A DNA stretch of 64,000 nt from Candidatus Saccharimonadota bacterium. Its GTDB lineage: Bacteria > Patescibacteriota > Saccharimonadia > UBA4664. The DNA lies in contig JACAFG010000005.1 of assembly GCA_019352195.1 (NCBI GenBank), positions 156,287 through 220,286 of the forward strand, read 5' to 3'. Made by a program: the position numbers and the translations under genes. Within the stretch, counting starts at the first letter, position 1, and each line of letters opens with the position of its first letter. This document shows, one piece after another, positions 32,738 to 54,190 of this stretch. The notes under the pieces were generated by a model. The model worked only from the letters and a program-made list of their open reading frames with translations, made no database searches and had not been told where the DNA came from.

Positions 32738-32778
32738 GTTCTGATAATATCAGTTTTTACATGCGCCACTTGAATCCT

Positions 32779-32826
32779 AGTTCGAACGTCGCCCACGGTG
32801 GTGTACCATTAAACTTATGCTTCGAA
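32779..32826 (+). repeat. island repeat copy G (near-consensus)
   Basis: AGTTCGAACGTCGCCCACGGTGGTGTACCATTAAACTTATGCTTCGAA. Confidence 0.85.
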
Positions 32827-33412: not shown

Positions 33413-33808
33413 ATGAATACTCTCGTAAAGCGGCTTCGGGACGGGCAGGATCTCATGTTAGAGATAACTAAACTCGTCGGGGAAAATCACGTACAGGCAG
33501 GTATCATCCTGTCGGCTGTAGGCAGTCTAAAAGAATCAAATATACGCGTACCTATTATCGACGGCGCCGTGAAATACATTAATCCGACTAATTTAGAGAT
33601 CGACAACTTGCATGGAACGGTGTCGGTAAATGGCTGCCACCTTCATATTTCTGTGTCTGATATCGACGGTAAAGTTATGGGCGGCCATTTAAAAACCGGT
33701 TGCATTGTTCGAACAACATGCGAGCTGGTGATTGGAGTATTGGACGATCATTCATTCCGACGAGAGCCCGATTCCGATACTGGTTACGATGAGCTGGCGG
33801 TCACTTGA
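33413..33808 (+). CDS. DUF296 / PPC-domain protein
   Basis: ..GIILSAVGSLKESNIR..GHLHISVSD.. pattern typical of PPC/DUF296. Confidence 0.55.
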   Translation: MNTLVKRLRDGQDLMLEITKLVGENHVQAGIILSAVGSLKESNIRVPIIDGAVKYINPTNLEIDNLHGTVSVNGCHLHISVSDIDGKVMGGHLKTGCIVRTTCELVIGVLDDHSFRREPDSDTGYDELAVT

Positions 33809-34002
33809 TTCGCTGCTGACGAGGTTACATCGCATTTCGAACGTCTTTTACGATGGTTTTCCAGCAGCCATCGAACCAAAACAGCGCATTTCTAGTGTCT
33901 TTCTCTTGTGCATTCAAAAATAAACTTGTTTAGATTGAGGGAGTTAGTTGTCGGAGCTTTAACCTTGACCGCGACTAACTGTGTAGCTATAATGTAATTA
34001 CT

Positions 34003-34239
34003 ATGAAGGCATCAATCGTCACCATCGGCAATTCAAAGGGTATACGCATTCCGAAGCCCCTGCTCGAGGAAAGTGGCTTAAGCGGTGACGTTGAATTAAA
34101 AGCTGTTAAGGGTGAAATCAAGATTGTTGCAGCAACACGCGATCCGAAGATATCGGAAACCATGCTTCTTTCCGAAAAAGTGCTTGCACGAGACTGGCTA
34201 CGCCCCGAAGAGGATGAGGCATGGTCAAGTTTACAGTAG
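34003..34239 (+). CDS. mazE: MazE/AbrB-type antitoxin
   Basis: IGNSKGIRIPKPLLEESGL; paralogue of 7786-8067 product. Confidence 0.75.
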   Translation: MKASIVTIGNSKGIRIPKPLLEESGLSGDVELKAVKGEIKIVAATRDPKISETMLLSEKVLARDWLRPEEDEAWSSLQ

Positions 34240-34553
34240 GGCAAGTCGTCACAAGTGCCTTTCCATTTTCTGATCTCACGACACAGAAGTTGAGGCCAGC
34301 ACTAGTTGTTGCGATCGGGGACTTCGAAGACATAATTTTATGCCAAATCACCTCAAAAACGTATTCGAGCTCTAATCCTATCAAGTTAACAGCTGCAGAT
34401 TTTGTCGAGGGTAGCCTGCCGGTGGATAGTTTTATACGTCCTGACAAATTATTTACGGCCGATCAATCAATCGTACATTAAGCATATGGCAGAGTCAGTG
34501 ATGCAAAGCTGCAGCACGTTCTGGCCGATATTCGCCAGTTATTTACGACCTAG
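34221..34553 (+). pseudogene. mazF: MazF/PemK toxin with in-frame TAA at 34479-34481
   Basis: N-terminal 86 aa (..RPALVVAIG..ITSKT..) then TAA; the same frame continues AYGRVSDAKLQHVLADIRQLFTT*, the expected MazF C-terminus. Confidence 0.65.
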
Positions 34554-34586
34554 ACGTAGTGGTCGAGTATCTTGAAGTTGAATTGC

Positions 34587-34662
34587 AGTTCGAACGTCGC
34601 CCACCGTGGTGTACCAGCAATAATCAAACTATGATAACGCCTTTATTAAGGCGTTATCTTTG
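34587..34662 (+). repeat. island repeat copy H plus second copy of tRNA-Leu 3' flank
   Basis: AGTTCGAACGTCGCCCACCGTGGTGTACCA + GCAATAATCAAACTATGATAACGCCTTTATTAAGGCGTTAT (compare 25807-25850). Confidence 0.85.
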
Positions 34663-34749
34663 TATATATCGCTTTGGGTCCCAAGTATTATTCAAAACTT
34701 TTTTTAACGGAAAGAGCCCCCAGGCGCGGAGGATTTACGGGCTTGAGGG

Positions 34750-35355
34750 CTAAGCGGTTAGTTTGATGGGATCAGCAACTTTGTGGCGCTGATATCCAGG
34801 ATGCCAGAGCCGGACCACAGCCTGAACGACTGCGAGCTGGCTGCCGGGAATGAACATGAGCGATGCCCTCGTGAGCAATCGCACCTTGCGTTCCTGCGAG
34901 GCGTAATTTGCCTCTTCGTCGCAGGACAATGGGAAGGCGTATTCGCTCGTGGTTGTGGTGATGTTGAACCCGCGCCCTAGTATTTTGCGGCCCAAGAACA
35001 GAATACGTGGTTCAGCGTGGCGGATCGTCACAAAAATTACATCTGCGACCTTGATACCGTTACGTGCCATTACGTGCTTGGCGCAAGTCATATTGCTGAT
35101 GTTATCTCGGGATTGATCCTCGAAGAGGATGTGGTCTGCTGGTACTCCCAAGTCAATCATGATGGCGCGCATTTCGGCGGCTTCGGTGAATTCGTTCTGA
35201 TTAGTGTCAAGGACACTCCAGCGTCCGCACGCCGTAACATAATCGACTTTGCCCGACAGCCACAACGCGGCAGCTTTGCGGGCAATCGATTTCGTGCCTT
35301 CAGCGCCCGGTCCACGACCAAAGGCAATGGCAATAGTTGTCAATCGAAACACCAT
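34750..35355 (-). CDS. DUF218 / YdcF-ElyC-SanA family protein
   Basis: YdcF-like Rossmann-like core; family assignment by overall pattern. Confidence 0.5.
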   Translation of the reverse strand: MVFRLTTIAIAFGRGPGAEGTKSIARKAAALWLSGKVDYVTACGRWSVLDTNQNEFTEAAEMRAIMIDLGVPADHILFEDQSRDNISNMTCAKHVMARNGIKVADVIFVTIRHAEPRILFLGRKILGRGFNITTTTSEYAFPLSCDEEANYASQERKVRLLTRASLMFIPGSQLAVVQAVVRLWHPGYQRHKVADPIKLTA

Positions 35356-35439
35356 CCTCAGTTAGGGCGGATAGAGTAGTATATAGTAACATTAATTTAA
35401 CTATAGTGCAACATTATTGCGTTGTAATAATCGTATCGA

Positions 35440-35471
35440 AGTTCGAACGTCGCTTACGGTGGTGTACCATT
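35440..35471 (+). repeat. island repeat copy I
   Basis: AGTTCGAACGTCGCTTACGGTGGTGTACCATTG. Confidence 0.8.
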
Positions 35472-35549
35472 GTGTACAAAGTAAATAGTTACGACGTCTT
35501 GACGTCATAACGTTATTAGATCATACTCAAAGTATATAAGGAGACCCAT

Positions 35550-35780
35550 ATGGCAACCCTAACCGAGCGCACCACGGTATATCTTAATCCGTATGTAAAA
35601 AAGTATCTGCAGCATGAGGCCGTTGAACAGAATAAATCGATATCCGAATTGATCAACGAGCAATTGGCTGAGTTGCTGGAAGACGCTGAGGATTCGGCAG
35701 CCATTAATTCTCGTAAGACCGAATCTCTTACGTCGTGGGACAAGGTTAAGGCCGATTTAGTGCGAGACGGATTGCTTTAG
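35550..35780 (+). CDS. relB: RHH (RelB/CopG-like) antitoxin
   Basis: RHH N-terminus (TTVYLNPYVKKYLQHEAVEQNKSISELI). Confidence 0.65.
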   Translation: MATLTERTTVYLNPYVKKYLQHEAVEQNKSISELINEQLAELLEDAEDSAAINSRKTESLTSWDKVKADLVRDGLL

Positions 35781-35785
35781 CCCCG

Positions 35786-36037
35786 ATGTACGTAATTGTC
35801 TTGCGAACCAGCGCCACGAAAGAGTTACGCAAGCTGCCTAGTCCTATCCGGCAGCAAATCATTATCCTGATTGATTCGCTGGCAAGCGATCCAAGACCTC
35901 ATGGCGTGAAGAAAATGGCGGGGGTTGAAGCTTGGCGAATACGTTTTGGTGACTACCGAGTAATTTTCTCGATTCAAGATACCCGGTTATTGATTGAGAT
36001 TATCAAAATTGGTAACCGACGTGATGTCTACCGGTAA
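35786..36037 (+). CDS. relE: RelE/ParE-family toxin
   Basis: ..GVKKMAGVEAWRIRFGDYRVIFSI..LIEIIKIGNRRDVY RelE/StbE signature. Confidence 0.8.
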   Translation: MYVIVLRTSATKELRKLPSPIRQQIIILIDSLASDPRPHGVKKMAGVEAWRIRFGDYRVIFSIQDTRLLIEIIKIGNRRDVYR

Positions 36038-41623: not shown

Positions 41624-42010
41624 CTACCGGTTGGTGGATGAGCCGGCGCGTCTTCGCAAGCTTCGCGCCATGAGTAACAGGAGAATCAGGGCGTGAATAG
41701 CAACAGCGGCTGCGATGCTGAGCAGCACGATTGTGGTGGCGCCCTGATAGTGCAGAAGGGTCAGAATGTAGCTAAATAGGACGATGCCAAGCAAGCGGAG
41801 GATAAATCCGATTCGGTTGGATCGGAGCTCACGCCAATTGATGCGCGCGACATAGACGTAGAAGATCCAAATATGGATGAGCAGGAGGGCCCCAATGTAA
41901 AGAAGCGTTGGGATGATGAGTTTGTAGTGGATGAGCGGGACCAGGACAATCGTAGTTCCAAGTAAGGTTGCGAGCTTGCCGACAAACAAGCGGGGCTGGT
42001 TGATTTGCAT
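41624..42010 (-). CDS. small polytopic membrane protein
   Basis: 4 predicted hydrophobic helices; downstream of cytochrome b gene. Confidence 0.45.
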   Translation of the reverse strand: MQINQPRLFVGKLATLLGTTIVLVPLIHYKLIIPTLLYIGALLLIHIWIFYVYVARINWRELRSNRIGFILRLLGIVLFSYILTLLHYQGATTIVLLSIAAAVAIHALILLLLMARSLRRRAGSSTNR

Positions 42011-42019: not shown

Positions 42020-43492
42020 CTACCGCGTGGGTGGTTTGCGCCAGATGAGCTTATAGAGACCGAGTTTTTCGGGTAGGCGGTTAACGAAGGGAATGAACGG
42101 GAACGCCAGGAGCAGGAGGATAAAGGTCCCGATGATGATGGCAGCGTCACGGTCGCCGTTGTCGTCACTGGCGAGGACCGTGTGGTTCAACAATCCGATG
42201 GGGGCAAGCCACCACGCGCCCGGGGGAATGCTGCCTGATTCTTCACGAACCATGCCGTATTGGTCAGTCGTCATTTTGAGACTGGTGGCAGTGTCGTCGG
42301 GCACGCCCGTATCGGCGAGGAAGCGAGTAACATAGGTGGTCTCGTAACCGGAGCCGTTGTTGTTGCGCAGAGCTGCCTCGTACAGACCACTGCCTGCCAT
42401 CGTCGTGAGCTTATCGACCACCGCAACCACGGGGTTAGCTTTCGGGGTGGCGGGTTTTGGGTCCGCGGCGTAATAGTCGGTGGCGGCTTTGAGCTGGGCA
42501 TCTTGGATCGCGGTTGGCTCAGCGTTGAAAACGTCCATCTGATTGGTACCGACTTGGACCGCGAGGAGTTGGTGATACGGGGTTTCAATATACACTTGGC
42601 GTGAATCAAAGGTGTAAGGGTTAATGTTATCGAGATAGGTGGCAGTATCGGATGAGTGGTCGAACTCTTTGGTTAGGGTTTGCGAGATGAGGGCCGGGTC
42701 GTCGGCGGCAATTTTGCTGATGGTGAGCGGGGCGAGATAGGGCGACGGATACATATACGCGAGAGCTGCCACGGCCAGGACCACGGTGCCGCCGCGCCAC
42801 GCCAGTAAGGTGTGGTTGGCTTTAACAACTGGGTAGTTATCGGCCAGTTTGGCCGGCTTGCCGATGCCAAGCACCCGCACCAGAAAGTAATGACCCAGGA
42901 TTAAGGCGATGAGCAGGAGCGGGATTACCACCACGTGAATACCCATGACCTGGCCCGTGTTGAGGTTATTGAGAACCCAACCAATGCCGCTGCCGTTGTA
43001 GAGGTCGGCGCCTTGGAGGCTACGGTATTGGGACGAGAAGTCGCCGCGGAGCACATAGCCGAATTCAGCTTCAGCTAGGGCGAACAGGAACATGAACACC
43101 CCTAGTACCCAGGTTAGCTTGCGGCCGCCGCGGAAGCCGGAGGTGAGGAAGACGATGGTCAGGTGAAGCAATATGAACACGACGAAGGCTTGAGTGGCCC
43201 AGAGGTGGAAGCTGCGCGTATATTGGCCGACGGTACTGGTGATCCACCAGTGGGGCCCAGCTGCAGCCATAATGGTGCCAGTAACTAGCAGGAGCAAAAA
43301 CGAGACAGCCGAGAGAAAGCCGAGCGAGTAGAAGAATTTGTTGGCAAACGACGGCACGTCGCGGATCATGAGGTTTTGGAGGCCGTTGCGTATCAGTTGG
43401 AACGGGGGCTGTGATTGAGCCATTAGTGTTATCTCTTTGGCAGTGGACGAGGGGCCATCGCTTCGCCGTGTAGTGTTACTTGGCGTCATCAT
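42020..43492 (-). CDS. di-haem cytochrome b (b6-like) fused to a ~260-aa extracytoplasmic C-terminal domain
   Basis: His pairs spaced 14 and 15 residues apart in helices (SFHLW..ILLHL; GIHVVV..LGHYF), b6-type spacing; possible start at internal Met 43423. Confidence 0.55.
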   Translation of the reverse strand: MMTPSNTTRRSDGPSSTAKEITLMAQSQPPFQLIRNGLQNLMIRDVPSFANKFFYSLGFLSAVSFLLLLVTGTIMAAAGPHWWITSTVGQYTRSFHLWATQAFVVFILLHLTIVFLTSGFRGGRKLTWVLGVFMFLFALAEAEFGYVLRGDFSSQYRSLQGADLYNGSGIGWVLNNLNTGQVMGIHVVVIPLLLIALILGHYFLVRVLGIGKPAKLADNYPVVKANHTLLAWRGGTVVLAVAALAYMYPSPYLAPLTISKIAADDPALISQTLTKEFDHSSDTATYLDNINPYTFDSRQVYIETPYHQLLAVQVGTNQMDVFNAEPTAIQDAQLKAATDYYAADPKPATPKANPVVAVVDKLTTMAGSGLYEAALRNNNGSGYETTYVTRFLADTGVPDDTATSLKMTTDQYGMVREESGSIPPGAWWLAPIGLLNHTVLASDDNGDRDAAIIIGTFILLLLAFPFIPFVNRLPEKLGLYKLIWRKPPTR

Positions 43493-43897: not shown

Positions 43898-44335
43898 CTA
43901 GAGCTTCACCTTCCTTGTGGGTAGCTCGGCGGCTAAGGTCTGCTCTATTACTCCGGCAAAGGTTATGGCGGCGGTGTTATTCACCTTGTTGATCTCGATA
44001 TCGCCAATGTGAGTGTGCAGCGTCACGCTTGAGAATAAGCCGTAGGTCACGAGGCGCACGCCAGTGATGATGGCGTACGAGAACTCCTCACTATCGGTAA
44101 TCATGGGGCGATGGCCAACCATGATAAGACGATGATTGGTGGCGACGAGGATGGTTCGGGCTTTGCCGTGGAAACCGCCAATGGCGGCAATGAGTTGCTC
44201 ATTGCCATTCAGATCGCGGGTGATGATGCGGGCTGCCTGATGCATGCGCCACATGCCCGTAACGCCCAAGTCGCCCAGTCGGGCGATCATACGCTCTTCG
44301 TCGTTGGCTGCCATGTGAGTTGCAGAGTGAAGCAT
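43898..44335 (-). CDS. bacterial PH (bPH_2/YokE-like) domain protein
   Basis: start at ATG 44333-44335; pattern consistent with bPH_2. Confidence 0.4.
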   Translation of the reverse strand: MLHSATHMAANDEERMIARLGDLGVTGMWRMHQAARIITRDLNGNEQLIAAIGGFHGKARTILVATNHRLIMVGHRPMITDSEEFSYAIITGVRLVTYGLFSSVTLHTHIGDIEINKVNNTAAITFAGVIEQTLAAELPTRKVKL

Positions 44336-44568
44336 TAGCTTATCCTCCCAAGGGTTGAAGTGGCGAAGGAGCGCTGATGGATGTTTGCCAGGCGGCTTAA
44401 TTCTTTGAGGCAGCGCTCGTATTTGTCGCGACCAATGTCGTTGACAGGTGCACGGCGATGATAGGCCGACCATGACCCGAGCAGGATTTGCTCGTAAACG
44501 TCGATACAAGCAATATCGACGGGTTTGTCCGCATTTAATTGAGGAAGATTGGATTTAGTCTGCGCCAT
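44335..44568 (-). CDS. small hypothetical protein coupled to bPH gene
   Basis: stop overlaps downstream start by 1 nt. Confidence 0.4.
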   Translation of the reverse strand: MAQTKSNLPQLNADKPVDIACIDVYEQILLGSWSAYHRRAPVNDIGRDKYERCLKELSRLANIHQRSFATSTLGRIS

Positions 44569-44675: not shown

Positions 44676-45323
44676 CTACAGATCGCGACCGAGGGTGGTT
44701 TCGAGTTCGGTTAAATTTGGTACGAGGAGAATTTTATTGTTGAGTTCAATGATACCGCTGGCGCGCAGTTTCACCATTTCCCGGCTGACAGTTTCGCGGC
44801 TCAGCCCCGAGCGGGCAGCAATATCAGACTCAGTCAGATTCATAACGAAGCCATCACCTGACGGCTCACCGAAGCGGCGGCACTCGATAATGAGTTCATA
44901 TATGACTCGGCTTTTGGCGGAGCTGGCCATAAGGTGAGCCATACGTTGCAGGACGCCGTCGGTGCCGCTATAGACGCGCGCGAGTAAGTTAAAGAGCACA
45001 TCGGGATTAGCCTTGATGAAGTCTAAGACCTGCTCGACGGGAGCTTTATGAAGCATAATGTTGTCTTCGGCTTCAAAAAAATAGAGATTTGGGGTGCGGT
45101 TAATGACATATGACATGGGGAAAAAGGCGCCGGTTTTGAAGATATTAAGAACGACTTCGTCACCGCGATACGTGAGGTCATACATCTTAACTCGTCCCGA
45201 TGTCAGGTAGTGGACACCATCGGGATCATCGCCAGCGTGAATGAGAATCTGGCCTTTTTTGTAGTCGCGGGTTGGAAATTGACCGAAAAAATCATTAACT
45301 TTAGCTGTTACTGCCGTGTCCAT
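44676..45323 (-). CDS. Crp/Fnr-family transcriptional regulator
   Basis: cNMP-binding beta-roll plus C-terminal HTH (ESDIAARSGLSRETVSREMVKL); GGGAGGA SD before ATG at 45323. Confidence 0.75.
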   Translation of the reverse strand: MDTAVTAKVNDFFGQFPTRDYKKGQILIHAGDDPDGVHYLTSGRVKMYDLTYRGDEVVLNIFKTGAFFPMSYVINRTPNLYFFEAEDNIMLHKAPVEQVLDFIKANPDVLFNLLARVYSGTDGVLQRMAHLMASSAKSRVIYELIIECRRFGEPSGDGFVMNLTESDIAARSGLSRETVSREMVKLRASGIIELNNKILLVPNLTELETTLGRDL

Positions 45324-45615
45324 TGGTCCTCCCGTGTCCCTCGAGTGTATAGGTTCTAGGGCGGCATTGATACTGGCTGAAGCCAAAAGTGCTCTCTGGT
45401 AGCGGTCCACTAACGGCTTGGCACCAGCCGGCGCCGTCTCACGGTAATCCCATCTGCTATACGGTAGGATGGCATCATTAAAGAACTCACCTGTTTAGGA
45501 TCCTCTACCGTATGTTTACTCCGCTCGTCCGAACCAACCCATTAGTACACAACTTCTCAGATATGGCTCAGACTGACATAAGCTTGTTATCAGCGCGTTG
45601 CGGTAAGGTAGCAGC

Positions 45616-46653
45616 ATGATTAACCGATATTCTTATAAGGTCAAAACGTCTATGGCCGTGTCGCGCGGCGTTAATGTAGTGCGGCTGGCTCCAACTTCGG
45701 GCAACGCCCTGACTGCTTTTGAGCCTGGTCAATATGTGGCTGTGAGCTATTACCGTTCGGGGCGACCTTCACCGGTACGCTGTTTTTCGCTGCTTAGTGT
45801 TGCTAACGCACGCGGCGAGCTGGAGCTTGGTATGCGTACAGGCGGTTTGTTTACGACCGCGTTTACGAAGCTCGCTCCCGGCGACATGGTGAGTGTACAA
45901 GGCCCATTTGGTAGCTTTACGGCCGAGAGGAATGATCCGTCGCCCATCGTTATGTTTGCCGGCGGCATCGGTATTACACCCTTTATCAGCATGATCCGTT
46001 CAGCGGCTGCGGCTGGCTTCCCGACTCCGATGCGTCTTATTTATAGCTTTAACGTCATCGACGCCGTGCCATTCCTCGATGAACTGACCGCCTACGCGGC
46101 GGACTCGGATAAGTTCCGCTTCCGCGTTTACGGTGGGCCGGCGGCGAGCCAGTTCGCGAACAGTAATGTGAGTTCGGAACGGATGGCTCCGCTGATCGTG
46201 CAGCAATTGGCTACCAATATTACCTCGGGGAGGTTTTTCTTGTGTGGTCCGGCCGGTTTTATGTCGACATACGGCAAAACCCTGCGTAAAGCCGGGATTA
46301 GCTCGGACGCCATAATAACCGAATCGTTTATGGCGATTGCGCCGGGTTCGCCGAAGAAGCGGTTTGGCATGCTGCCAATGGCGTACGCGCTTACGGCCAT
46401 GGCAATTGTGCTGGGAACGCTCACCATTAGCGGCGTCGATCTGGTTCGGTATTTGCCCGCGCACGCGGAGTCGAGCGCCCCGAGTGCCCCTTTATCTGCG
46501 CCGTCAGATTCGACGTCGGCCGTGGATACAACGAGTAATGAGACCGTGCCGGTGAGTACGGCTACGCCAACGGTATCTTCATCTTCAATAAGCTCTAGTT
46601 CGTCATCAAATTATTCAAGCTACTACCAAGCGCCCCGCAGCTCGGTGTCGTAA
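45616..46653 (+). CDS. FNR-type FAD/NAD(P)-binding oxidoreductase with C-terminal TM and Ser/Thr-rich tail
   Basis: RxxS FAD motif (RCFSL), GGIGITPF NAD motif. Confidence 0.65.
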   Translation: MINRYSYKVKTSMAVSRGVNVVRLAPTSGNALTAFEPGQYVAVSYYRSGRPSPVRCFSLLSVANARGELELGMRTGGLFTTAFTKLAPGDMVSVQGPFGSFTAERNDPSPIVMFAGGIGITPFISMIRSAAAAGFPTPMRLIYSFNVIDAVPFLDELTAYAADSDKFRFRVYGGPAASQFANSNVSSERMAPLIVQQLATNITSGRFFLCGPAGFMSTYGKTLRKAGISSDAIITESFMAIAPGSPKKRFGMLPMAYALTAMAIVLGTLTISGVDLVRYLPAHAESSAPSAPLSAPSDSTSAVDTTSNETVPVSTATPTVSSSSISSSSSSNYSSYYQAPRSSVS

Positions 46654-46654
46654 C

Positions 46655-47581
46655 ATGCACCATTTTCAGCAAGCGCGGCAGGCTCTTGGCTCAGAGGTAA
46701 TTCTGACCATTTTGACAGCGCGCCGTGACGCGCAGCTTGATAGCATGTTTGACGGGCTCTGGAATCACTTAGAAGGTTTTGAAGAGCGTTTTAGCAGATT
46801 TCGGACTACCAGCGAAACCACGCGTGTCAATGTGGGGGCAGGCAGTTGGGTTGAGGTGTCGCCGGAGTTCATGGAAATGCTGCGGCTATGCACCTACTGG
46901 AATCAAAAGACGGCCGGGTTATTTAACCCGCTCGTTTTGCCGCAGCTGCAGCGAGCAGGTTACGTTGGTTCCTGGCCCGACGCTGCGACGGTTACTCCTC
47001 AGCTTGATTACCGGCAGCGTAACGTAGCAGCTTGGACTGAAATCGAAACTCACGGCTCGCGGGTGCGACTTCCCAAATCGAGCGCGCTTGATTTGGGCGG
47101 CATTGGTAAGGGTCTCGCGTTAGATCAGCTGGCAGCTGTCGTGGCTTCAGTCTACCCTGACTTTTGCCTGTCATTGGGCGGCGACATCGTGTGCGGTGGG
47201 CGGGGCTTGACTGGTGCTTGGGAAATCGAGGTGATGCGGGCCTCAAATACCGACGAAGCCGCCGCCGTCTACCAGCCAGCGGGCGACGAAATTTTTGCTC
47301 TCGCTACTTCTGGGGTGACGAATCGCCAAGGCATTACCAATGGACAGCCCTGGCATCATATTATCGATCCGCGTACCGGCATGAGCAGTAAGTCGAACGT
47401 CCTGACAGCTAGTGTCGTGGCCGAGACGGGGATAGCGGCTGACATTTTGGCCAAATGCGTGGTTATTACGGGGTCCAAGAATGCCGAGATGTTGTTGACC
47501 CAGCTTGCTGCCTCGGCGTGGCTGCTTCAAACTGAGGATGAAGCACTTATTATTCAAAACGGAGGATTTCGCATATGTTGA
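46655..47581 (+). CDS. apbE: FAD:protein FMN transferase (ApbE family)
   Basis: ..ALDLGGIGKGLALDQ.. and C-terminal ApbE motifs. Confidence 0.75.
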   Translation: MHHFQQARQALGSEVILTILTARRDAQLDSMFDGLWNHLEGFEERFSRFRTTSETTRVNVGAGSWVEVSPEFMEMLRLCTYWNQKTAGLFNPLVLPQLQRAGYVGSWPDAATVTPQLDYRQRNVAAWTEIETHGSRVRLPKSSALDLGGIGKGLALDQLAAVVASVYPDFCLSLGGDIVCGGRGLTGAWEIEVMRASNTDEAAAVYQPAGDEIFALATSGVTNRQGITNGQPWHHIIDPRTGMSSKSNVLTASVVAETGIAADILAKCVVITGSKNAEMLLTQLAASAWLLQTEDEALIIQNGGFRIC

Positions 47582-48186
47582 CGTTGTTTGCTGCCACCAG
47601 TGTTGCAACCAGAGTAGCGCAGGCTTGGCCATGGTATGTGGTGCGGGCGGCGGGCTTTATTGCGGTTGGCTTGTTGATTTTATTGATTATTTCGGGCATC
47701 GCTCAGGTGACGGGTTTGATGTATCGCTTTTTTGAGCCGGTTAAGGCATGGGCTATCCACAAAGCGCTTGGCTACGCTTTGGCGTTGGCCGTAATGGTGC
47801 ACGTCGGGTTTTTGCTCATCGACACGTATCTTCCCTTCTCCTTATCTCAAGCCCTGATTCCGTTTGTATCGGGTTACAAACCCGTTTCAATTGCTGGAGT
47901 ACAGGTATCGCTGTGGGTGGCGGCCGGGATTGTTGGACTCTATGGACTCGCTATAATTCTCGTGACTTCTTGGCTATTGATTGACCGCCAGCGCAAACTT
48001 TGGAAGGGTTTTCACTACCTCAGTTACGCGGTAATGGCACTTATATTTGTCCACGCGCTCTATCTTGGTAGCGACCTGCGCTACGGCACGTTTCGGTCGG
48101 CCTGGCTCGCAATTGGCGGCCTTATCATACTAGCGATTGGGACGAGGCTGTGGCGGGCGGGGCTGCTAAAGCATCGCAGCTCGTGA
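47575..48186 (+). CDS. ferric-reductase-like transmembrane (haem-binding) domain protein
   Basis: 6 TM with paired His (..MVHVGF.. ..FVHALY..). Confidence 0.55.
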   Translation: MLTLFAATSVATRVAQAWPWYVVRAAGFIAVGLLILLIISGIAQVTGLMYRFFEPVKAWAIHKALGYALALAVMVHVGFLLIDTYLPFSLSQALIPFVSGYKPVSIAGVQVSLWVAAGIVGLYGLAIILVTSWLLIDRQRKLWKGFHYLSYAVMALIFVHALYLGSDLRYGTFRSAWLAIGGLIILAIGTRLWRAGLLKHRSS

Positions 48187-48686
48187 GCGAGCCTGTGGCC
48201 GAAGCGCCAATTTCAAATTCCGAAGCGCGAATTAAACGCCTGTTTTATATCTCGCTCATCATCAAAGGTGTCGACGCGGTGCTGCAGCTGGTTGGCGGCG
48301 TTTTGCTGCTGACGCTGCGCTCAACCCAAGTTGATTCAGCCGTGCGGTTTTTGGCGGATCATAGTTACGGCGGCGACCTCGACGATGCGTTATTTCGTCA
48401 TGCTTCCGGCTACTTGAGCCATCTGACCGGTGGGACAATTCGCTTTGTGGCGATTTATATCATTGTAGACGCGCTCCTGAAGTTGATTTTGATTCATGAA
48501 ATCTTTCATAAGCGGTACTGGGCCTATATTGGACTTATCTCGATCTTATCGGTATTGGTGGTCTATCAAACGTACCGGATTATTTTGAACCACTCGGTGA
48601 TCTTGATGGTTTTGACGGCGTTTGATCTTGTGATCATTTACTTGTCGGCGCATGAATATCGTCGTCATATGATGGCCGTCCACTAA
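48150..48686 (+). CDS. hypothetical membrane protein
   Basis: 4 TM ORF overlapping upstream gene end. Confidence 0.4.
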   Translation: MAGGAAKASQLVSEPVAEAPISNSEARIKRLFYISLIIKGVDAVLQLVGGVLLLTLRSTQVDSAVRFLADHSYGGDLDDALFRHASGYLSHLTGGTIRFVAIYIIVDALLKLILIHEIFHKRYWAYIGLISILSVLVVYQTYRIILNHSVILMVLTAFDLVIIYLSAHEYRRHMMAVH

Positions 48687-48708
48687 GCCTCTGAGGGCAC
48701 GGTTGTCC

Positions 48709-50229
48709 TTAGTAGCCAGAGAAATGGTCGGTTTTGATACTGCTCGTGGCGACTCCCAGGTCCTGAAGATACGCCTTCGTGGCATCGACCATGACGTTGG
48801 GGCCAGAAATGTAGAAGGTCCGCTGGACGGCGTCAGGAATGAGGCTCGAGAGCAGGTTGGTCGACAGTTTGCCGGTTATGGCGCCGGGCGCTGATACCCC
48901 AGTTTGGGTGATGATGGGGATAGTGGTCACGCCAACTTGGCGGGCGGCCTCAAATTCAGTCATGTAAGCGAGCTCGGCTGGATCTGATACGACGTAGAGT
49001 ACGACGACATCACTTTGGATACCTGAGTCAGTCAAATACTTCACCATGCTGCGAAACGGGGTTACCCCAATGCCGCCCGCAATGAGCGCCAGTTTTTGGT
49101 GGTCGTGTTTGCCTAAGGTGAAGTTCCCGCCCAACTGACTGGCGTAGAGCAAATCGCCTGGTTGGAGCTGCGCCATGGCGGCTTTAAAACTACTGGCCGG
49201 TTCATAGTACTTGATGCCGAGCTGCACGGTATTTTCCGTGGGAGAAGAGGCAATGGTAAACGTTCGGCGGTTGCCGCGGCTATCGTACGGTACGCCGGCT
49301 AAGGTCCACTCCATGTACTGACCTGGCAGAAACGTAAACGGCTGGTCGGGCTTAAAAACGTAGTTGTAGACGCGGTCGGAAATACGCTGAACTTCTTGGA
49401 GTTCGAGCCGCAACCGGAATTTTGGTGATACCAAGTAGGCGTAAACGTTACCAAGCAGGAGGGCTACCTCGGGGTAAATGATCAGGGGGCCAATTTGCCA
49501 AGCGGTGGCATATAAAATTCCGACGAAGACGCCAAAAACTAATTGCTTGTTCAGTCGTGGCGGCATTGTCGCTGGTTCAGTAAGCATAATGGTAGCTAAG
49601 AAGATGAGGGGCGAGCTAATCAGGGCCGCCTTCATATTGCTGCCAAAGGCCTGCTGGCCAAGGGAAAAGCTGAGTGCCTGCGTCACGATCGCGGTGGCGA
49701 CGAAACTTAGTACCATGGGAAAACGGCGGATCTTGCGGACGACCAGGAGCCCAAGAACCAGGGTAAACGGCCAGAAAATCGCGCTGCCAATCCACCAGGT
49801 AGTGGACTGAAGACCGGTGAGCCCAAGAATGGTGGCGGCTAACGCGGCCGGATTAAAGAAGTGCTTGGCGTTACGGGCGAGGAGAAATTTAGACGCGCTC
49901 GAGATGGCGCCACCTAGGATTAGGGCTACGGCCGAGGCGGAACTGGTCGCCGGATGGACAATCAAAAATAATATCAGCGCCGTAATGAGCCATGATTGGT
50001 TGTTGGTGGGCACGTCAAATAGTTTGGAAAAGCTAAAGTCGGTAATGAAGGCCGAGCCAAGCAGCAAAAATAGTGACACCACCATGGCCGTGGGACTGGC
50101 CGATAAGCGTCCGAGCATTGAGGCGCCAATGCCGATGGCTGCCAGAAGACTGAGCACGTAGACCACGAGGCGATACATGGTGATGCGGTTAAGCACAGCA
50201 TTAATGGGCTCAGAGATAGTTTTAAGCAT
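48709..50229 (-). CDS. polytopic membrane domain (NqrB/RnfD-like, ..HFFNPAA..) fused to FNR-type FAD/NAD-binding module
   Basis: C-terminal RTFTIAS (FAD) and GGIGVTPF (NAD); N-terminal ~8 TM. Confidence 0.55.
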   Translation of the reverse strand: MLKTISEPINAVLNRITMYRLVVYVLSLLAAIGIGASMLGRLSASPTAMVVSLFLLLGSAFITDFSFSKLFDVPTNNQSWLITALILFLIVHPATSSASAVALILGGAISSASKFLLARNAKHFFNPAALAATILGLTGLQSTTWWIGSAIFWPFTLVLGLLVVRKIRRFPMVLSFVATAIVTQALSFSLGQQAFGSNMKAALISSPLIFLATIMLTEPATMPPRLNKQLVFGVFVGILYATAWQIGPLIIYPEVALLLGNVYAYLVSPKFRLRLELQEVQRISDRVYNYVFKPDQPFTFLPGQYMEWTLAGVPYDSRGNRRTFTIASSPTENTVQLGIKYYEPASSFKAAMAQLQPGDLLYASQLGGNFTLGKHDHQKLALIAGGIGVTPFRSMVKYLTDSGIQSDVVVLYVVSDPAELAYMTEFEAARQVGVTTIPIITQTGVSAPGAITGKLSTNLLSSLIPDAVQRTFYISGPNVMVDATKAYLQDLGVATSSIKTDHFSGY

Positions 50230-50232
50230 ATT

Positions 50233-50748
50233 TTAGGCCTGGGCCTGCGAAGCGATTTGGTTTAGCGTCTGGACGAATCCGGAGGTTGTATCAGAAGCGC
50301 CTGAGATAACGTCAAGACTGAGCCCGCTCAGGCTTTTGCCGACGACATAGTTTTTGTAAGACGAGGCAAAATCTTGTTGGTAACTCGCAGAGGTGCTGTC
50401 GCCTTCACTATTTTGAATCGAAGCGTTGGTAATAACTCCGCCGACTAGTTTCACCTCGACACTAATAGATTCCTGACTGTGGGGCACCCGGTAGTTGGCT
50501 GATGCAGAATAGGTGCCATCTTTGTAGCCATTCGTGGTAGACGAGGCGGCTCCGGTCGCTGAGGGAGTGGCGGGCGTAGTTGTCGGCAGGCTGGAAGCTG
50601 ACGTCGAGACGGTTGACAGCGTGCTGACGGCGGAGGTTTGGTTGGATTTGATCTTATCAATCGTGATAACGGTACCCCCGATGACGGCGACGCTAATCAG
50701 GGTTGCTAAAATTTTAGTCTTGCCGTGTTGTTCGTACGTTGTCAGCAT
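50233..50748 (-). CDS. membrane-anchored extracytoplasmic FMN-binding (FMN_bind) protein, probable ApbE substrate
   Basis: TM, Ser/Thr linker, ..DGTYSASANY.. and D-V-I-S-G-A-S-D-T-T flavinylation-type motif. Confidence 0.6.
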   Translation of the reverse strand: MLTTYEQHGKTKILATLISVAVIGGTVITIDKIKSNQTSAVSTLSTVSTSASSLPTTTPATPSATGAASSTTNGYKDGTYSASANYRVPHSQESISVEVKLVGGVITNASIQNSEGDSTSASYQQDFASSYKNYVVGKSLSGLSLDVISGASDTTSGFVQTLNQIASQAQA

Positions 50749-50815: not shown

Positions 50816-51463
50816 TTATTGAGCTATATCTGAAGCCTTGGCGAAGGGAATATACCAGTGCGCAATCGCACCGATGAGGAGTAGGCTCAGGCACCAGCCA
50901 GCCAGGACATCGCTCGGATAATGGACGCCTAAATAGATGCGCGAGGCGCCGACGGCCAAGGCGTACATGACACCTAAGGTGAGCGCAAGGTAGCGCCATT
51001 TCGTGTTCCATACCAAATAGATAATGGCGAGCGCAAAGGCGCTACTGATGAGGCTGTGCCCGCTCGGAAACGACTGCCCTGTCTCCACCACTAGATGAGA
51101 TAAATAGCTGGGGCGCACGCGGCCAATGATGACTTTGAAGACGTAAGCTAGAACAACGGCGCCGAGAACTCCGGCGGTGATGATGCCGAGCTCAAAGTGT
51201 TTGCGTTTTGAAATGAGCCCAAATCCAAGAATAGCCACTGAGACTAAGACAACGGGAGTGCTTCCCACATCAGTAATGAGATGAAATAAAACCGTGTGGT
51301 TGGGCGAGCGGAGGTTGCCAAAAAACTGCATTATGGGTTGGTCGAACCATATTTGACGATGGGAGACGACCGCAATAGCTAAGGCGATAAAAATGGTGGC
51401 CGGAATCAGGTAAGCGAGATAATAGGGGCTAACTGAGCGGTTGGGATTAGGTGTGAGTTTCAT
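50816..51463 (-). CDS. PAP2-family membrane phosphatase
   Basis: KxxxxxxRP / PSGH / SRxxxxxHxxxD (SFPSGHSL; ASRIYLGVHYPSDV). Confidence 0.75.
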   Translation of the reverse strand: MKLTPNPNRSVSPYYLAYLIPATIFIALAIAVVSHRQIWFDQPIMQFFGNLRSPNHTVLFHLITDVGSTPVVLVSVAILGFGLISKRKHFELGIITAGVLGAVVLAYVFKVIIGRVRPSYLSHLVVETGQSFPSGHSLISSAFALAIIYLVWNTKWRYLALTLGVMYALAVGASRIYLGVHYPSDVLAGWCLSLLLIGAIAHWYIPFAKASDIAQ

Positions 51464-51515: not shown

Positions 51516-52523
51516 CTAGCTATGATGAGGGTTGGCTTGTGGCACAACGAGGGTAACCGTCGTACCTTTACCGACGGTTGATTTTATGTCAATTCGTCCG
51601 TTATGCAGCTTGATGATTTGGCGCACCAGCGCGAGCCCCAGTCCATGTCCGGGTGAATTCCGGGCGGCCTCGGCGCGCCAAAACCGCCGGGACGTTGCTC
51701 TGATCTCCTCGTCGGTCATGCCTATCCCCTGGTCGGTCACGGTGATGATGATGTCAGCGTTGTGGGACGTGGCGGCAACCGTTATGGGGGTATCGACCGC
51801 GGAGTATTTGACGGCGTTATCAATGAGATTCTTGATAGCTTGCTCGAGCAGAGCGGAGGAGCCCATCACCGTCAGATTGGTCGGGGTATTCAGATGGATA
51901 CGACTCGCAACGTCCGGCGCTGCGGTTCGCGTAGCTCTGACACTGCGAGTCATGAGCTGATACACATTGAGAGGTTGAAACTGCGCCGTCACTTGATCTG
52001 CCTTGCCTCTCGCTAGCAGCAGGAGGCTTGCGACCAGGTCAGACAAGGCTTTGGTTTCGGTCAGACTGGCAGCAATTGACGCCTGGTAATGCTCGGGACT
52101 ACGTGGGCGGCGGAGCGCAAGTTCGAGTTCGCCTTGAATAATACTGAGCGGTGTTCGCAGCTCGTGGGAGGCGTCATCAACGAATCGCTGCTGCGTTTCG
52201 TAAGACACTTGAATCGGTCTCAGGGCGCGCCGAGCCATTTGGTAACTTACAATCGGGATAATAAGGACGACTAAAGCGTCGGCAATAAGCAAGCCAGCCT
52301 GAAGCTCGTCGAGTCCCTCGTCGACCGTATTATGGATGTCTCGTTGGCGGATACTACTGTGCTCAAGATCACTATGCTGCAAGTCTGAGGTAATATTTGA
52401 CTCATAGTTGCTGGCGAACGTGCGGTTCATATAGTAGTAAATGCTCACACTAAAGAGCCCGACCAAGCCAATGAGTAGAATCGAGTATTGCCAAGTAAGG
52501 TTAATGACAGTTTTACGAAACAT
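51516..52523 (-). CDS. sensor histidine kinase
   Basis: H-box SHELRTPL, N/G boxes DNAVKYS, DQGIGM, GHGLGL. Confidence 0.85.
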   Translation of the reverse strand: MFRKTVINLTWQYSILLIGLVGLFSVSIYYYMNRTFASNYESNITSDLQHSDLEHSSIRQRDIHNTVDEGLDELQAGLLIADALVVLIIPIVSYQMARRALRPIQVSYETQQRFVDDASHELRTPLSIIQGELELALRRPRSPEHYQASIAASLTETKALSDLVASLLLLARGKADQVTAQFQPLNVYQLMTRSVRATRTAAPDVASRIHLNTPTNLTVMGSSALLEQAIKNLIDNAVKYSAVDTPITVAATSHNADIIITVTDQGIGMTDEEIRATSRRFWRAEAARNSPGHGLGLALVRQIIKLHNGRIDIKSTVGKGTTVTLVVPQANPHHS

Positions 52524-53203
52524 TAGGCCTGTTTGCCGATCATATAGCCAGCGCCTCGGCGGGTCTCAATGATATCGGGCTCGCCGCCTGCGGTGAGTTT
52601 CTTGCGAACGTAGCGAATATAGGTTTCGACGACATTGCTGAGACCGTCATACTCATAGTCCCAAGCGTGCTCGAGCAGTTCAGATTGACTGACAATTCTG
52701 CCGGCATGCCGCACCAGATAATCAAGAACAGCGTACTCCTTGGCGGTAAGCTCGATAACTCGGCTGCCTCGGACAGCGCGGCGCGTGGCAGGCTCTAGGG
52801 TGAGGTCATCAATCGTGAGTGAAGTCAGCTGGGCCTTGGCGGCTCGTCGCAGCAGAGCGCGGATTCTGGCCAACAGCTCGTCTAAGTTAAACGGTTTCGT
52901 GAGGTAATCATCGGCCCCAGCATCAAGTCCGGAAACTTTGCTGTCTGGTGAGTCGAGCGCGGTTAGCATGAGGATCGGCAGGTGGTGTCCCCGCCCCCGA
53001 ATTTGGCGGCATAACTCGATACCGCCACCGGCGATTCCCGGAATGAGTAAATCGAGAATGACCAAATCATACGCTTCAGCGTCGAGCGCGTCGTTAGCCT
53101 GGGCCGCGTCTAAAGCCACGCGCACCGTATAGCTGGCTTCGGTTAGAGCGCGGTTGATGAGGCTGGCGATTTTGACTTCATCTTCAATGACTAATAGTTT
53201 CAT
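52523..53203 (-). CDS. OmpR-family response regulator
   Basis: receiver (LLVIEDE..DLLIPG) plus winged-helix (..LTAKEYAVLDYLV..). Confidence 0.85.
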   Translation of the reverse strand: MKLLVIEDEVKIASLINRALTEASYTVRVALDAAQANDALDAEAYDLVILDLLIPGIAGGGIELCRQIRGRGHHLPILMLTALDSPDSKVSGLDAGADDYLTKPFNLDELLARIRALLRRAAKAQLTSLTIDDLTLEPATRRAVRGSRVIELTAKEYAVLDYLVRHAGRIVSQSELLEHAWDYEYDGLSNVVETYIRYVRKKLTAGGEPDIIETRRGAGYMIGKQA

Positions 53204-53281: not shown

Positions 53282-54190
53282 CTATTTTAAGGTCGCAATG
53301 TCGATAACAAAGCGGTAACGCACGTCAGATTTTACGACGCGTTCGTACGCCTCATCAATAGCGTCGGCGGAGATAACTTCGATCTCGGCACCTAAATGAT
53401 GTTCGGCGCAAAAATCGAGCATTTCCTGAGTTTGCTCGATACCGCCAATCAGCGACCCGGCAAAGGAGCGGCGTTGCCCAATGAGCGAGAAGACGTTGAG
53501 CGATAGCGGTTTGGGCGGAGCGCCGACATTTACCAGCTTGAGGCCATCATCTTTTTTCGATAGCGACTGCGACAACACGGTGACTTCGGCGCCGAGGGCA
53601 TGCGCCAGCTTGACGGCCATGTGACCGAGACCCCCAAGACCGACAATCGCAACTTGTTTACCAGGACCAGCGCCCCAGTGCTTAAGCGGCGAGTAGGTGG
53701 TGATGCCGGCACACAACAACGGTGCCGCGGCGTCCAGTTCGATGTCTTCGGGGATGCTAAGGACAAAGCCTTCGGTTACCACCACATGCGTTGAGTAGCC
53801 GCCAAGGGTTGGGCTGCCGTCGCCATAGGTATCGACGGAGGCGTACGTCCCGGTCATACCACGCAGGCAAAATCGTTGCTCGCCTTTCAGGCAGTTAGCG
53901 CACTCGCCGCACGAGTTAACCATACAGCCGACGCCGACCCGGTCGCCGACTTTGTGCTTGGTGACTTCAGAACCTACTTCGGCCACGATGCCCGCTATCT
54001 CGTGTCCGGGGACGAGGGGGTAGGTTTCAGACTGCCACTCGCCACGGACGTGATGAATGTCGGAATGACAAATGCCAGCGTATTTAATTTCGATGAGGAC
54101 GTCCCTCGCGCCGACCTCGCGGCGATCGATGGTTGCGGGTTCGAAACTGCCATTGGCCTCTAAAATGGCGCGTGCCTTAACTTGCTTCAT
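53282..54190 (-). CDS. zinc-dependent alcohol dehydrogenase (MDR family)
   Basis: GHEIAGIV, structural Zn CGECANC, GLGGLGH Rossmann motif. Confidence 0.8.
   Translation of the reverse strand: MKQVKARAILEANGSFEPATIDRREVGARDVLIEIKYAGICHSDIHHVRGEWQSETYPLVPGHEIAGIVAEVGSEVTKHKVGDRVGVGCMVNSCGECANCLKGEQRFCLRGMTGTYASVDTYGDGSPTLGGYSTHVVVTEGFVLSIPEDIELDAAAPLLCAGITTYSPLKHWGAGPGKQVAIVGLGGLGHMAVKLAHALGAEVTVLSQSLSKKDDGLKLVNVGAPPKPLSLNVFSLIGQRRSFAGSLIGGIEQTQEMLDFCAEHHLGAEIEVISADAIDEAYERVVKSDVRYRFVIDIATLK

Follow-up and report, generated by a model that had tools for sequence, protein, structure and literature searches.

Clusters in which an FMN_bind protein and the flavin transferase ApbE accompany a membrane protein with an N-terminal NqrB/RnfD-like domain (PF03116) and a C-terminal FNR-type domain (PF00175) have been described on bioinformatic grounds as NQR/RNF-like flavinylation-associated systems, and were placed mainly in Actinobacteria and the candidate phyla radiation (CPR) (Meheust et al. 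2021, PMC8238504). In AlphaFold-multimer models of such systems the flavinylation site of the FMN_bind protein docks at the outer face of the NqrB-like domain, which is missing the flavinylated Thr in the membrane (Huang et al. 2024, PMC11334425). A second class, the MsrQ-like systems, is recognized by a PF01794 protein within a flavinylation-associated cluster. We analyzed a locus at positions 44676-50748 of a 64,000-nt stretch of DNA, referred to here as the window, from a metagenome-assembled genome of Candidatus Saccharibacteria, a member of the CPR. Judged from its sequence, the locus is a composite of two independently conserved modules. Module A comprises an FNR-like protein with one transmembrane (TM) helix (FNR-TM), ApbE and a ferric-reductase-type membrane protein (Ferric_reduct), module B an FMN_bind subunit and an NqrB/RnfD-like::FNR fusion. 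We consider it probable that both modules are driven by NAD(P)H, share the one ApbE and export electrons to an extracytosolic acceptor.

A sequence-only reading of the window had already named the locus as a flavinylation-associated one for transmembrane electron transfer, and this agrees with our results. Its seven open reading frames (ORFs) were all confirmed in position, and Pfam and NCBIfam profiles back the assignments to Crp, both FNR modules, ApbE, Ferric_reduct, the NQR2_RnfD_RnfE segment and cytochrome b. Checking of the ORFs showed that they form two convergent operons, arranged tail to tail, and one divergent regulator gene. The operon on the + strand encodes the 345-aa FNR-like protein, ApbE, Ferric_reduct and a DUF2127 protein in abutting or overlapping genes. 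The operon on the - strand encodes a response regulator, a histidine kinase, a PAP2 phosphatase, the 171-aa FMN_bind protein and the 506-aa fusion. The apbE gene, which had been described as sitting with the FMN_bind gene, actually belongs to the other, convergent operon.

The fusion protein of module B (48709-50229, - strand) matches NQR2_RnfD_RnfE (Pfam, 9.5e-7), FAD_binding_6 and NAD_binding_1. Its NqrB/RnfD-like domain of 10 TM helices (aa 1-270, nt 49420-50229) is followed by a predicted cytosolic FNR-type FAD/NAD(P)H domain (aa 271-506, nt 48712-49419). The protein thus combines N-terminal PF03116 (28.9 bits against a cut-off of 27.7, aa 156-266) with C-terminal PF00175 (35.5 bits, aa 382-485) as in the architecture of Meheust et al. 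2021. The family profile matches RnfD (8ahx_D) at 3.4e-5, and the FNR domain is distantly NqrF-like according to NCBIfam. About 75 RnfD residues between the ...TTW segment and the next TM helix, including the flavinylation loop, are without counterpart in the fusion, which has about 6 residues there; the flavinylated Thr of NqrB/RnfD is absent from the membrane domain, as in the systems of Huang et al. 2024. Two candidates for a residual flavinylation site in the NqrB-like domain were considered and found unsupported: S-A-[ST]-W-W at 142-146, which corresponds in the alignment to RnfD ...QMTTW, ahead of the deleted loop, and S-A-S-K at 111-114, a conserved S-K pair without the motif. The Ser113-Lys114 pair itself (A-[MS]-A-S-K, aa 111-114, nt 49888-49899) is near-invariant in 83 fusion proteins and is located at the predicted cytosolic end of TM4, just ahead of an invariant K-H-x-F-N-P-A segment. 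We regard the Ser-Lys pair not as a flavinylation motif but as probably part of a cofactor site.

The fusion family counts 583 representatives at E<=1e-30 in a library clustered at 50% identity, nearly all of about 500 aa, and a scan of GTDB with the fusion alignment confirmed at least 538 species-level matches. By these counts module B is common in the CPR and forms a uniform, widespread family. The following figures refer to the 80 best of these GTDB loci (L009-L088; related loci are given L numbers). Saccharibacteria and other Patescibacteria contribute at least 44 of them and Chloroflexota 19. The sequence-only reading had called such a system unexpected in a reduced genome; this view does not hold, given the numbers in Patescibacteria and the published distribution of the NQR/RNF-like clusters. 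The gene order is FMN_bind-ApbE-fusion in 53 loci, FMN_bind-fusion, the type found in the window, in 12, and ApbE-fusion in three; the fusion gene stands alone in 10, including some on truncated contigs. Outside this set the FMN_bind and fusion pair, normally with apbE in between, also occurs on its own, without module A, at L006, L007 and in Pseudarthrobacter (L008).

In the window the gene upstream of the fusion (50233-50748, - strand) encodes the 171-aa FMN_bind subunit, which is assigned to the FMN-bind1 type by its family profile, fold model and homologues. An N-terminal signal anchor (aa 13-31) and a Ser/Thr linker (aa 32-72) precede a single domain (aa 73-171), and there is no lipobox Cys. 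The flanks of the anchor differ in charge, the N-flank being richer in K+R than the C-flank (mean 2.5 versus 1.55 over the homologues). The protein had been described as secreted; our results agree with an anchoring in the membrane, but not with a freely secreted form. PF04205 is matched by 12 of 27 aligned homologues, and many of the 129 homologues are labelled "uncharacterized protein with FMN-binding domain" by JGI. In a comparison of the family profile with the solved FMN-binding domain 8p2a (E=0.008) Ser152 lies opposite the flavinylated Thr. An AlphaFold2 (AF2) model reaches a predicted local distance difference test score (pLDDT) of about 90 over the domain; its top Foldseek match is 3o6u (probability 1.0), the reference structure for FMN-bind1 in Huang et al. 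2024 (PMC11334425), and 8p2a matches with a TM-score of 0.74.

The motif D146-V-I-S-G-A-S152 (50293-50313, - strand; Ser152 at nt 50293-50295) was detected by pattern matching and is the sole strict D..[ST]GA[ST] match among window ORFs of at least 70 aa. G150, S152 and T154 are invariant across 27 homologues. The family consensus is x-[AS]-G-A-S-D-T-T, in which the Asp and the first Ser vary, and the full motif is present in 6 of 120 homologues. ApbE has been reported to accept Ser, and loss of the motif Asp to have minor effects (PMC12052999). Conservation of the motif Ser/Thr in homologues, which the sequence-only reading had set as a test of its proposal, was thus found for Ser152, the predicted site of FMN attachment. 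The subunit resembles the extracytosolic NqrC/RnfG-like FMN-binding protein with a flavinylation site described by Huang et al. 2024, a location outside the membrane being predicted for it.

Module A starts with FNR-TM (45616-46653, + strand; FAD_binding_6 2.7e-10, NAD_binding_1 4.9e-9), whose 345 aa are divided into a predicted cytosolic FAD/NAD(P)H domain (aa 1-245), one TM helix (aa 252-274, nt 46369-46437) and a Ser/Thr-rich tail of 71 aa. The NCBI version of the protein (P0241) starts 12 codons further downstream. In the AF2 model the FNR fold and a long helix (aa 240-272 in the numbering of P0241) have high pLDDT, and the tail is disordered. FNR-TM homologues give FAD_binding_8 and NAD_binding_6 signals of the NADPH oxidase (NOX) type, and distant relatives (P0312, P0315, P0320, P0346) are fused Ferric_reduct+FAD_binding_8+NAD_binding proteins.

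The last gene of the module (47575-48186, + strand) overlaps the apbE stop by 7 nt and encodes Ferric_reduct, a di-heme b membrane protein of the FRD/NOX/MsrQ type (Pfam 8.3e-7, 29.5 bits with a cut-off of 28), i.e. a PF01794 protein within a flavinylation-associated cluster. It had been described as a di-His membrane domain of ferric-reductase type; the type stands, but the number of His ligands is four and not two. H62/H76 (x13) and H147/H160 (x12), all four invariant in 10 homologues, make up two bis-His heme sites on two helices, with the spacing of NOX/FRE proteins. Among PDB profiles the protein shows a weak match to the TM domain of STEAP4. Loops with R/K clusters and the C-terminus are placed inside and the N-terminus outside by the charge pattern, and four homologues carry a signal-peptide-like N-terminal extension. 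Because of these two features, and following the positive-inside rule, we predict a core of 5 TM helices with the N-terminus outside, equivalent to TM2-TM6 of NOX. The FNR-TM helix could then supply the missing first NOX helix, and the pair would represent a split, circularly permuted NOX. As a separate observation, Thr46-Gly47 of Ferric_reduct (aa 43-47, nt 47701-47715), in the first predicted cytosolic loop, is invariant in Saccharibacteria, and the Thr46 column holds Ser or Thr in most ApbE-linked Ferric_reduct homologues from high-GC contigs (L089-L133), which makes this position a potential cytosolic site of interest.

Between these two genes lies the one for ApbE (FAD:protein FMN transferase; 308 aa; 46655-47581, + strand; Pfam 9.3e-44, 150 bits), termed type A here. 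The protein aligns end to end with mature ApbE of V. cholerae (6nxi, 9e-40), and the motifs DLGGIGKG at residue 146, TSG at 218 and HHIIDP at 234 provide the residues for Mg and FAD binding and the catalytic His. No second ApbE was detected in a profile scan of the window ORFs. FNR-TM, ApbE and Ferric_reduct form a triad of abutting or overlapping genes at 15 further loci (L001-L005, L089-L092, L094, L096-L098, L100 and L169). Within 8 kb of the triad no NqrB-like or FMN_bind gene is found in several Saccharibacteria contigs (L001-L005) and in the metagenome contigs (L089-L092, L094, L096-L098, L100), so that module A is seen to stand alone as module B does.

The two modules also occur together elsewhere. 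In a fairly distant Saccharibacteria genome (GCA_017884045.1, L169/L170) module A is located 3 kb from a module B that lacks apbE and is preceded by a response regulator and a histidine kinase. The order is Ferric_reduct, ApbE and FNR-TM, divergent from VIT1, a 140-aa gene, response regulator, histidine kinase, FMN_bind and fusion. An Anaerolineae contig (L071) carries ApbE-A-like and Ferric_reduct genes beside a complete module B. In the window the FMN_bind gene ends 3 nt upstream of the fusion gene with no type B apbE between them, and ApbE is encoded 1.1 kb away in the convergent operon, i.e. in the neighborhood described for the NQR/RNF-like class. The closest relatives of the fusion (L009-L014) retain the type B gene. 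Since module B has lost the apbE that usually lies between its two genes, the ApbE of module A most likely serves the FMN_bind protein of module B, too.

From domain identities, gene order, conservation and synteny we infer the electron-transfer steps, topology, acceptor and flavinylation pairing as follows. In module B the FNR domain would oxidize NAD(P)H and pass electrons via one or more flavins in the NqrB/RnfD-like membrane domain to an FMN linked by a phosphoester bond to Ser152 of the FMN_bind protein, which would be kept outside the membrane by its N-terminal anchor and Ser/Thr linker. In module A, FNR-TM, held by its C-terminal TM helix, would reduce the two b hemes of Ferric_reduct with electrons drawn from NAD(P)H, and the hemes would move these electrons across the membrane. 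ApbE-A would be the sole flavin transferase of the locus and act on the FMN_bind protein of module B as well. The output would be the reduction of an extracytosolic acceptor, with regeneration of NAD(P)+ as a by-product useful to a fermenter; handling of iron or Fe(III) is our best-supported guess. The neighboring two-component system and the regulator of the Crp family would probably govern expression.

Several observations weigh against this reading. The 171-aa protein itself has no Pfam or NCBIfam match, even at E<=10, so that its identity as an FMN_bind protein holds at the family level (homologues, profile and fold) but not by a direct match of the window copy. Neither a terminal reductase nor an acceptor-binding protein is encoded in the window, and VIT1, which was linked to iron in related clusters (see below), is absent from the window and associated with 3 of about 90 loci only. 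In the parts of the literature accessible to us, no biochemical characterization of these systems was found. Around stand-alone module A there is neither a canonical flavinylation motif nor an FMN_bind gene within 8-10 kb, and ApbE-A should therefore have another client there. A further difficulty concerns export. The sequence-only reading had made its proposal depend on a secreted ApbE; we found no signal peptide, lipobox or TM helix in the protein, and the same is true of its type A homologues. Its N-terminus (MHHFQQARQALGSEV) contains no hydrophobic segment, the sequence opening at once with the first strand of the ApbE fold. Signal peptides are absent from all of the 79 closest type A homologues listed, and in 78 of these the protein sets in with the fold itself. 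Type B ApbE, only 25% identical to type A in Saccharibacteria, behaves alike: maximal-length ORFs have a median of 250 aa, often representing a mini-ApbE of about 246-250 aa, and none of 59 ORFs has an N-terminal hydrophobic segment, scores above 1.8 stemming from a fragment ORF and from the first beta-strand. Signal peptide and lipobox are also missing from the ApbE proteins of L006-L008. The FMN_bind partners carry a Sec-type N-terminal anchor without twin arginines in 64 of 67 cases, and the Pseudarthrobacter partner (L008) is a lipoprotein with a lipobox.

Across the module B class, a cytosolic-looking transferase is hence paired with a Sec-exported client. Since ApbE is signal-less, the simple picture of FmnB-style extracytoplasmic flavin trafficking does not carry over unchanged. 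Flavinylation could take place before the client is exported or while it is, export could follow another route, or the client could be a different one; we make no choice among these possibilities. The parts of Meheust et al. 2021 and Huang et al. 2024 available to us contain no comment on the missing export signal of ApbE in these clusters. Two further explanations were considered and rejected. Tat export of a pre-flavinylated FMN_bind protein disagrees with the rarity of twin arginines before the anchor (5 of 118 partners of the Saccharibacteria type, 1 of 56 from other phyla); most partners start with MKKxxLS..., and the window copy has HGKTK. A frameshifted FNR-TM::ApbE fusion, which would place ApbE outside, disagrees with the junctions between the two genes, which vary between genomes in frame and overlap (TAAcATG, TAATG, TAAATG, ATGA) and therefore indicate ordinary translationally coupled genes. 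The closest ApbE homologues are all about 300 aa long. A cytoplasmic ApbE with a cytoplasmic client has been established in Klebsiella pneumoniae (PMC12052999).

FNR-TM ends in a conserved peptide, YYQAPRSSVS (46621-46650, + strand), for which the C-termini of homologues give the consensus Y-Q-x-P-x-[ST]-S-V-S-COOH. We compared the tails of 67 homologues of at least 300 aa. An end of the form P-x-[ST]-x-[VIAMT]-S-COOH is present in 45 of them, with P at -6 and S at -1 in 45 of 45. An alternative end, C-T-T-x-Q-S-G-V-T-T-C-x, was found in 9 of the 67, in other lineages; its core S-G-V-T differs from the canonical S-G-A-T by one conservative change. The tail before the peptide is of low complexity and variable length, and longer tails (P0307, P0310, P0262, L092) gave no Pfam match. 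Across the 7359 ORFs of all loci compared, the peptide motif is almost confined to the gene that immediately precedes apbE, and at the end of FNR-TM proteins (P0241-P0310, L001-L005, L089-L098) it always comes right before the start of apbE. Codons at the peptide vary synonymously between loci and no Shine-Dalgarno-like sequence is present, which points to selection at the protein level. The motif is disordered in the AF2 model, with a pLDDT of about 36, and the model shows no docking of it on the FNR domain. In high-GC metagenome contigs (L103-L143) we further observed a small protein with a single TM helix directly upstream of signal-less apbE-Ferric_reduct pairs (e.g. L112:1150-1554, L133:770-1117). 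It starts with MTSHVGRLYA... and a basic helix and ends in ...VRVV[TN]LPPLTITRTS-COOH; the AGG codon for Arg in TRTS probably doubles as the ribosome-binding site of apbE. The gene preceding it ends in an acidic, His-rich tail (...DDDD).

The missing export signal bears directly on which protein ApbE modifies. One hypothesis, by analogy, is that the tail peptide, which is non-canonical and predicted to be outside, serves as a client of ApbE. A precedent is offered by FMN_red proteins, for which flavinylation of a modified Ser on an unstructured C-terminal extension has been shown experimentally (PMC11334425): there, too, the site is on a disordered C-terminal extension of a flavoprotein encoded beside apbE. 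Unlike in FMN_red, the peptide of FNR-TM is non-canonical and a TM helix separates it from the flavin domain. An extended version of this view holds that the signal-less ApbE flavinylates first and export follows, so that no FAD exporter is needed, and that the client of the split NOX is the C-terminal Ser/Thr peptide of FNR-TM, which bears a tethered flavin. The peptide would sit on a disordered extracellular tether of 45-130 residues, and its bound flavin would take electrons from the outer heme through the cell wall. If true, the arrangement would be widespread, as signal-less apbE-Ferric_reduct pairs of actinobacterial-like high-GC contigs follow the gene for the analogous small TM protein with the end ...LPPLTITRTS. 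We think this extended version quite unlikely to be correct. A client facing the cytosol instead, such as Thr46 in Ferric_reduct or a residue of the FNR and NqrB-like proteins, would let the flavin bridge FAD and the membrane cofactors on the inside and would leave Ser152 unmodified or to another enzyme. ApbE is signal-less throughout both module types, the Klebsiella pneumoniae enzyme (PMC12052999) sets a precedent, stand-alone module A loci lack an FMN_bind gene or canonical motif, a hydroxyl residue occupies the Thr46 column in most ApbE-linked Ferric_reduct proteins, and Ser113-Lys114 of the fusion is near-invariant at the predicted cytosolic end of TM4. However, no candidate site resembles D-x-x-[ST]-G-A-[ST]; the single canonical motif of the window lies on the FMN_bind protein with an invariant G-A-S core, and in 53 of 80 loci type B apbE directly separates the FMN_bind gene from that of the fusion, as is usual for an enzyme and its substrate. 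A cytosolic client is accordingly a doubtful solution, and we hold it to be quite improbable.

Other explanations differ from shared electron export in the purpose of the modules. Module A could work as an NADPH oxidase, making superoxide or H2O2 from O2 in order to scavenge O2, or as a weapon or signal directed at the host bacterium, with module B independent and its position incidental. The NOX-type FAD_binding_8 and NAD_binding_6 signals, the fused Ferric_reduct relatives and the His spacing, which is that of NOX/FRE proteins, agree with this, and Meheust et al. 2021 (PMC8238504) refer to NOX-like MsrQ/Fre systems made of two components. An ApbE would be superfluous for a NOX, but the triad has apbE as its middle gene in every case. 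Three contigs without relation to one another (the window, L169 and L071) carry modules A and B side by side, and in two of them module B has no apbE of its own, which argues for functional coupling; VIT1 points to iron. We therefore rate the oxidase as unlikely. A Listeria-type extracellular electron transfer (EET) chain for anaerobic respiration, as suggested by the comparison of the sequence-only reading with FmnB/PplA, would require a secreted ApbE, a surface FMN protein and a quinone pool. In its favor are ApbE, an anchored FMN_bind protein that bears a flavinylation motif, and a cytochrome b, encoded 1.2 kb from the interval, that could in principle use quinol. However, Pfam detected no Ndh2, EetA/EetB, DmkA/DmkB or ECF-type flavin exporter (FmnA) among the scanned window ORFs of at least 150 aa, ApbE is signal-less, the FMN_bind protein is single-domain without a lipobox, and the membrane parts, NqrB-like::FNR and FRD, draw on NAD(P)H directly with no need for a quinone. 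The locus matches the NQR/RNF-like and MsrQ-like classes instead, and a Listeria-type chain is very unlikely. The least credible option, in our view extremely improbable, is a repair system like MsrPQ in which electrons reach an extracytoplasmic reductase for oxidized proteins or disulfides. Ferric_reduct shares its Pfam family with MsrQ (PMC8238504), and a VKOR gene lies near the related locus L003, but genes for MsrP or other molybdopterin proteins, thioredoxin-like proteins or DsbD-type proteins were found neither in the scanned window ORFs nor among the listed genes of related loci.

The genes around the modules were examined for conserved neighbors. Divergent from module A lies a gene for a Crp/Fnr-family regulator (44676-45410, - strand; cNMP_binding 1.5e-13, HTH_Crp_2 1.7e-11), which has a single Cys and is therefore not an FNR-type Fe-S sensor. 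Downstream of it a bPH_3 (bacterial PH-domain) protein is encoded (43898-44509, - strand; Pfam 2.9e-4, below cut-off). The link of the regulator to the locus made by the sequence-only reading receives some support, since the pair recurs beside module B at L034, where a Crp homologue (223 bits) and a bPH gene lie upstream of it. The intergenic region between the Crp and FNR-TM genes contains a perfect 9-nt inverted repeat (45459-45513), ATACGGTAG ... CTACCGTAT, with a spacer of 37 nt; the window holds no second exact copy, and near-matches occur at chance frequency. A promoter and terminator scan of 44.4-53.4 kb likewise gave counts at chance level. Directly upstream of module B follow, all on the - strand and identified by Pfam, the PAP2 phosphatase (50816-51463), the histidine kinase (51516-52523) and an OmpR-type response regulator (52523-53203). 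Homologous regulator and kinase pairs are found beside module B at L007, L028, L030, L040, L074 and L169, and the three genes are probably co-regulated with module B. The sensor loops of the histidine kinases are not conserved and give no clue to the signal.

The last gene of the + strand operon encodes a DUF2127 membrane protein (48150-48686, + strand; Pfam 6.6e-22). It overlaps the Ferric_reduct gene by 37 nt and had been overlooked in the earlier description. It is peripheral: it is not conserved with module A, and a homologue near module B was found at L040 only. VIT1 lies in or next to the cluster at L169, at L054 (directly upstream, in the same orientation) and at L015; its association with both classes was noted, and a role in iron assimilation suggested, by Meheust et al. 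2021 (PMC8238504). The L169 contig (L169:1-20498, JABBYD010000123.1) also holds DUF347, DUF4396, PAP2 and Cation_efflux genes besides VIT1, and a second Ferric_reduct gene with a MarR regulator before it and DUF1775 two genes after; this composition suggests that the super-cluster is a metal-handling island.

On the other side of the Crp gene a cytochrome b/b6-like di-heme protein is encoded (42020-43492, - strand; Cytochrom_B_N_2 7.8e-12), with ligands H96/H110 (H-x13-H) and H186/H201 (H-x14-H). Its four-helix core is followed by a fifth hydrophobic segment, a domain of about 190 aa without a Pfam match, which is predicted to face outward, and a C-terminal TM helix. A gene for a 128-aa membrane protein comes after it (41624-42010, - strand), and neither a Rieske nor a cytochrome c partner turned up in the window. 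The connection of this cytochrome b to the locus, also made earlier, is weak: homologues lie 3-5 kb from the modules at two loci only, near module A at L003, where the gene is next to VKOR, and near module B at L054.

The remaining window is occupied by housekeeping and cell-envelope genes and a low-GC island; ORF scans revealed no respiratory genes there. The low-GC stretch (28000-36000, GC 0.43-0.45 compared to about 0.54 elsewhere in the window) includes genes for a zeta toxin (32036-32737) and a small PAS protein (30422-30958), and a helicase with HNH-endonuclease-associated repeats (26288-28150) lies just upstream. It was probably acquired horizontally. A Zn-alcohol-dehydrogenase ORF (53282-54190) measures 302 aa only, and its ADH_zinc_N match covers profile positions 76-128 only; the gene may be internally shortened or decaying.

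Saccharibacteria and other CPR are regarded as obligate fermenters with minimal redox equipment. If the proposed electron export is correct, they would possess, in this widely conserved and regulated pair of NAD(P)H-driven exporters, an electron sink outside the cell or a means of reducing iron, either of which could shape their dependence on host bacteria. Three anomalies deserve attention: a flavin transferase without an export signal is paired with exported clients across hundreds of genomes, there is evidence that one ApbE paralogue can replace another where both modules sit together, and the conserved C-terminal peptide encoded beside apbE could represent a novel type of client or docking element. 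A literature search for ApbE and Saccharibacteria together returned no paper.

In comparison with the described systems, module B is closest to the NQR/RNF-like class. An NqrB/RnfD-like domain is fused to a C-terminal PF00175 domain, an NqrC/RnfG-like FMN_bind protein predicted to be extracytosolic is encoded next to it, the membrane domain has no flavinylated Thr, other NQR/RNF subunits are absent, and the class occurs in the CPR. It differs in that the apbE usually found in between (53 of 80 loci) is missing and a paralogous ApbE from the neighboring operon is at hand. With Na+-NQR and RNF proper the module shares the NqrB/RnfD fold, an NqrC/RnfG-like partner and a distantly NqrF-like FNR domain. 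It consists of two subunits in place of six, only the B/D-like and C/G-like parts being present; subunits A, D and E and the Fe-S center are absent and the RnfD flavinylation loop is deleted. One-way electron flow is proposed for it, and there is no evidence for ion pumping.

Module A resembles the MsrQ-like, NOX, FRE and STEAP proteins, including E. coli MsrQ-Fre, in its PF01794 domain, two bis-His heme sites and a NAD(P)H/FAD-dependent FNR donor, and the flavinylation-associated MsrQ-like systems also in the presence of apbE in the cluster and of VIT1 now and then. The typical MsrQ-like architecture has a NAD-binding domain at the C-terminal end of the MsrQ-like protein and an FMN_bind gene in the cluster. 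In contrast to it, the FNR domain is a separate protein encoded before the membrane domain, with its own TM helix and a long tail that carries the conserved peptide. The membrane core has 5 predicted TM helices with the N-terminus outside, stand-alone module A comes without an FMN_bind gene, and its ApbE is signal-less. This last feature is shared with the cytoplasmic ApbE of Klebsiella pneumoniae (PMC12052999), whose client is a cytosolic soluble fumarate reductase, whereas the only canonical client here is Sec-anchored. As in the EET system of Listeria monocytogenes, ApbE-type flavinylation of a surface-anchored FMN_bind protein would carry electrons out of a monoderm cell; unlike there, NAD(P)H would donate directly via fused FNR domains, where Listeria relies on demethylmenaquinone and Ndh2; the FMN protein has one domain on a TM anchor and is not a two-domain lipoprotein like PplA, and ApbE is not a lipoprotein as FmnB is. 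As the class has been described before, the main contribution of the locus is a well-resolved example, and its core had been predicted for the CPR. What appears to be new is the split-NOX architecture, the shared signal-less ApbE and the conserved tail peptide.

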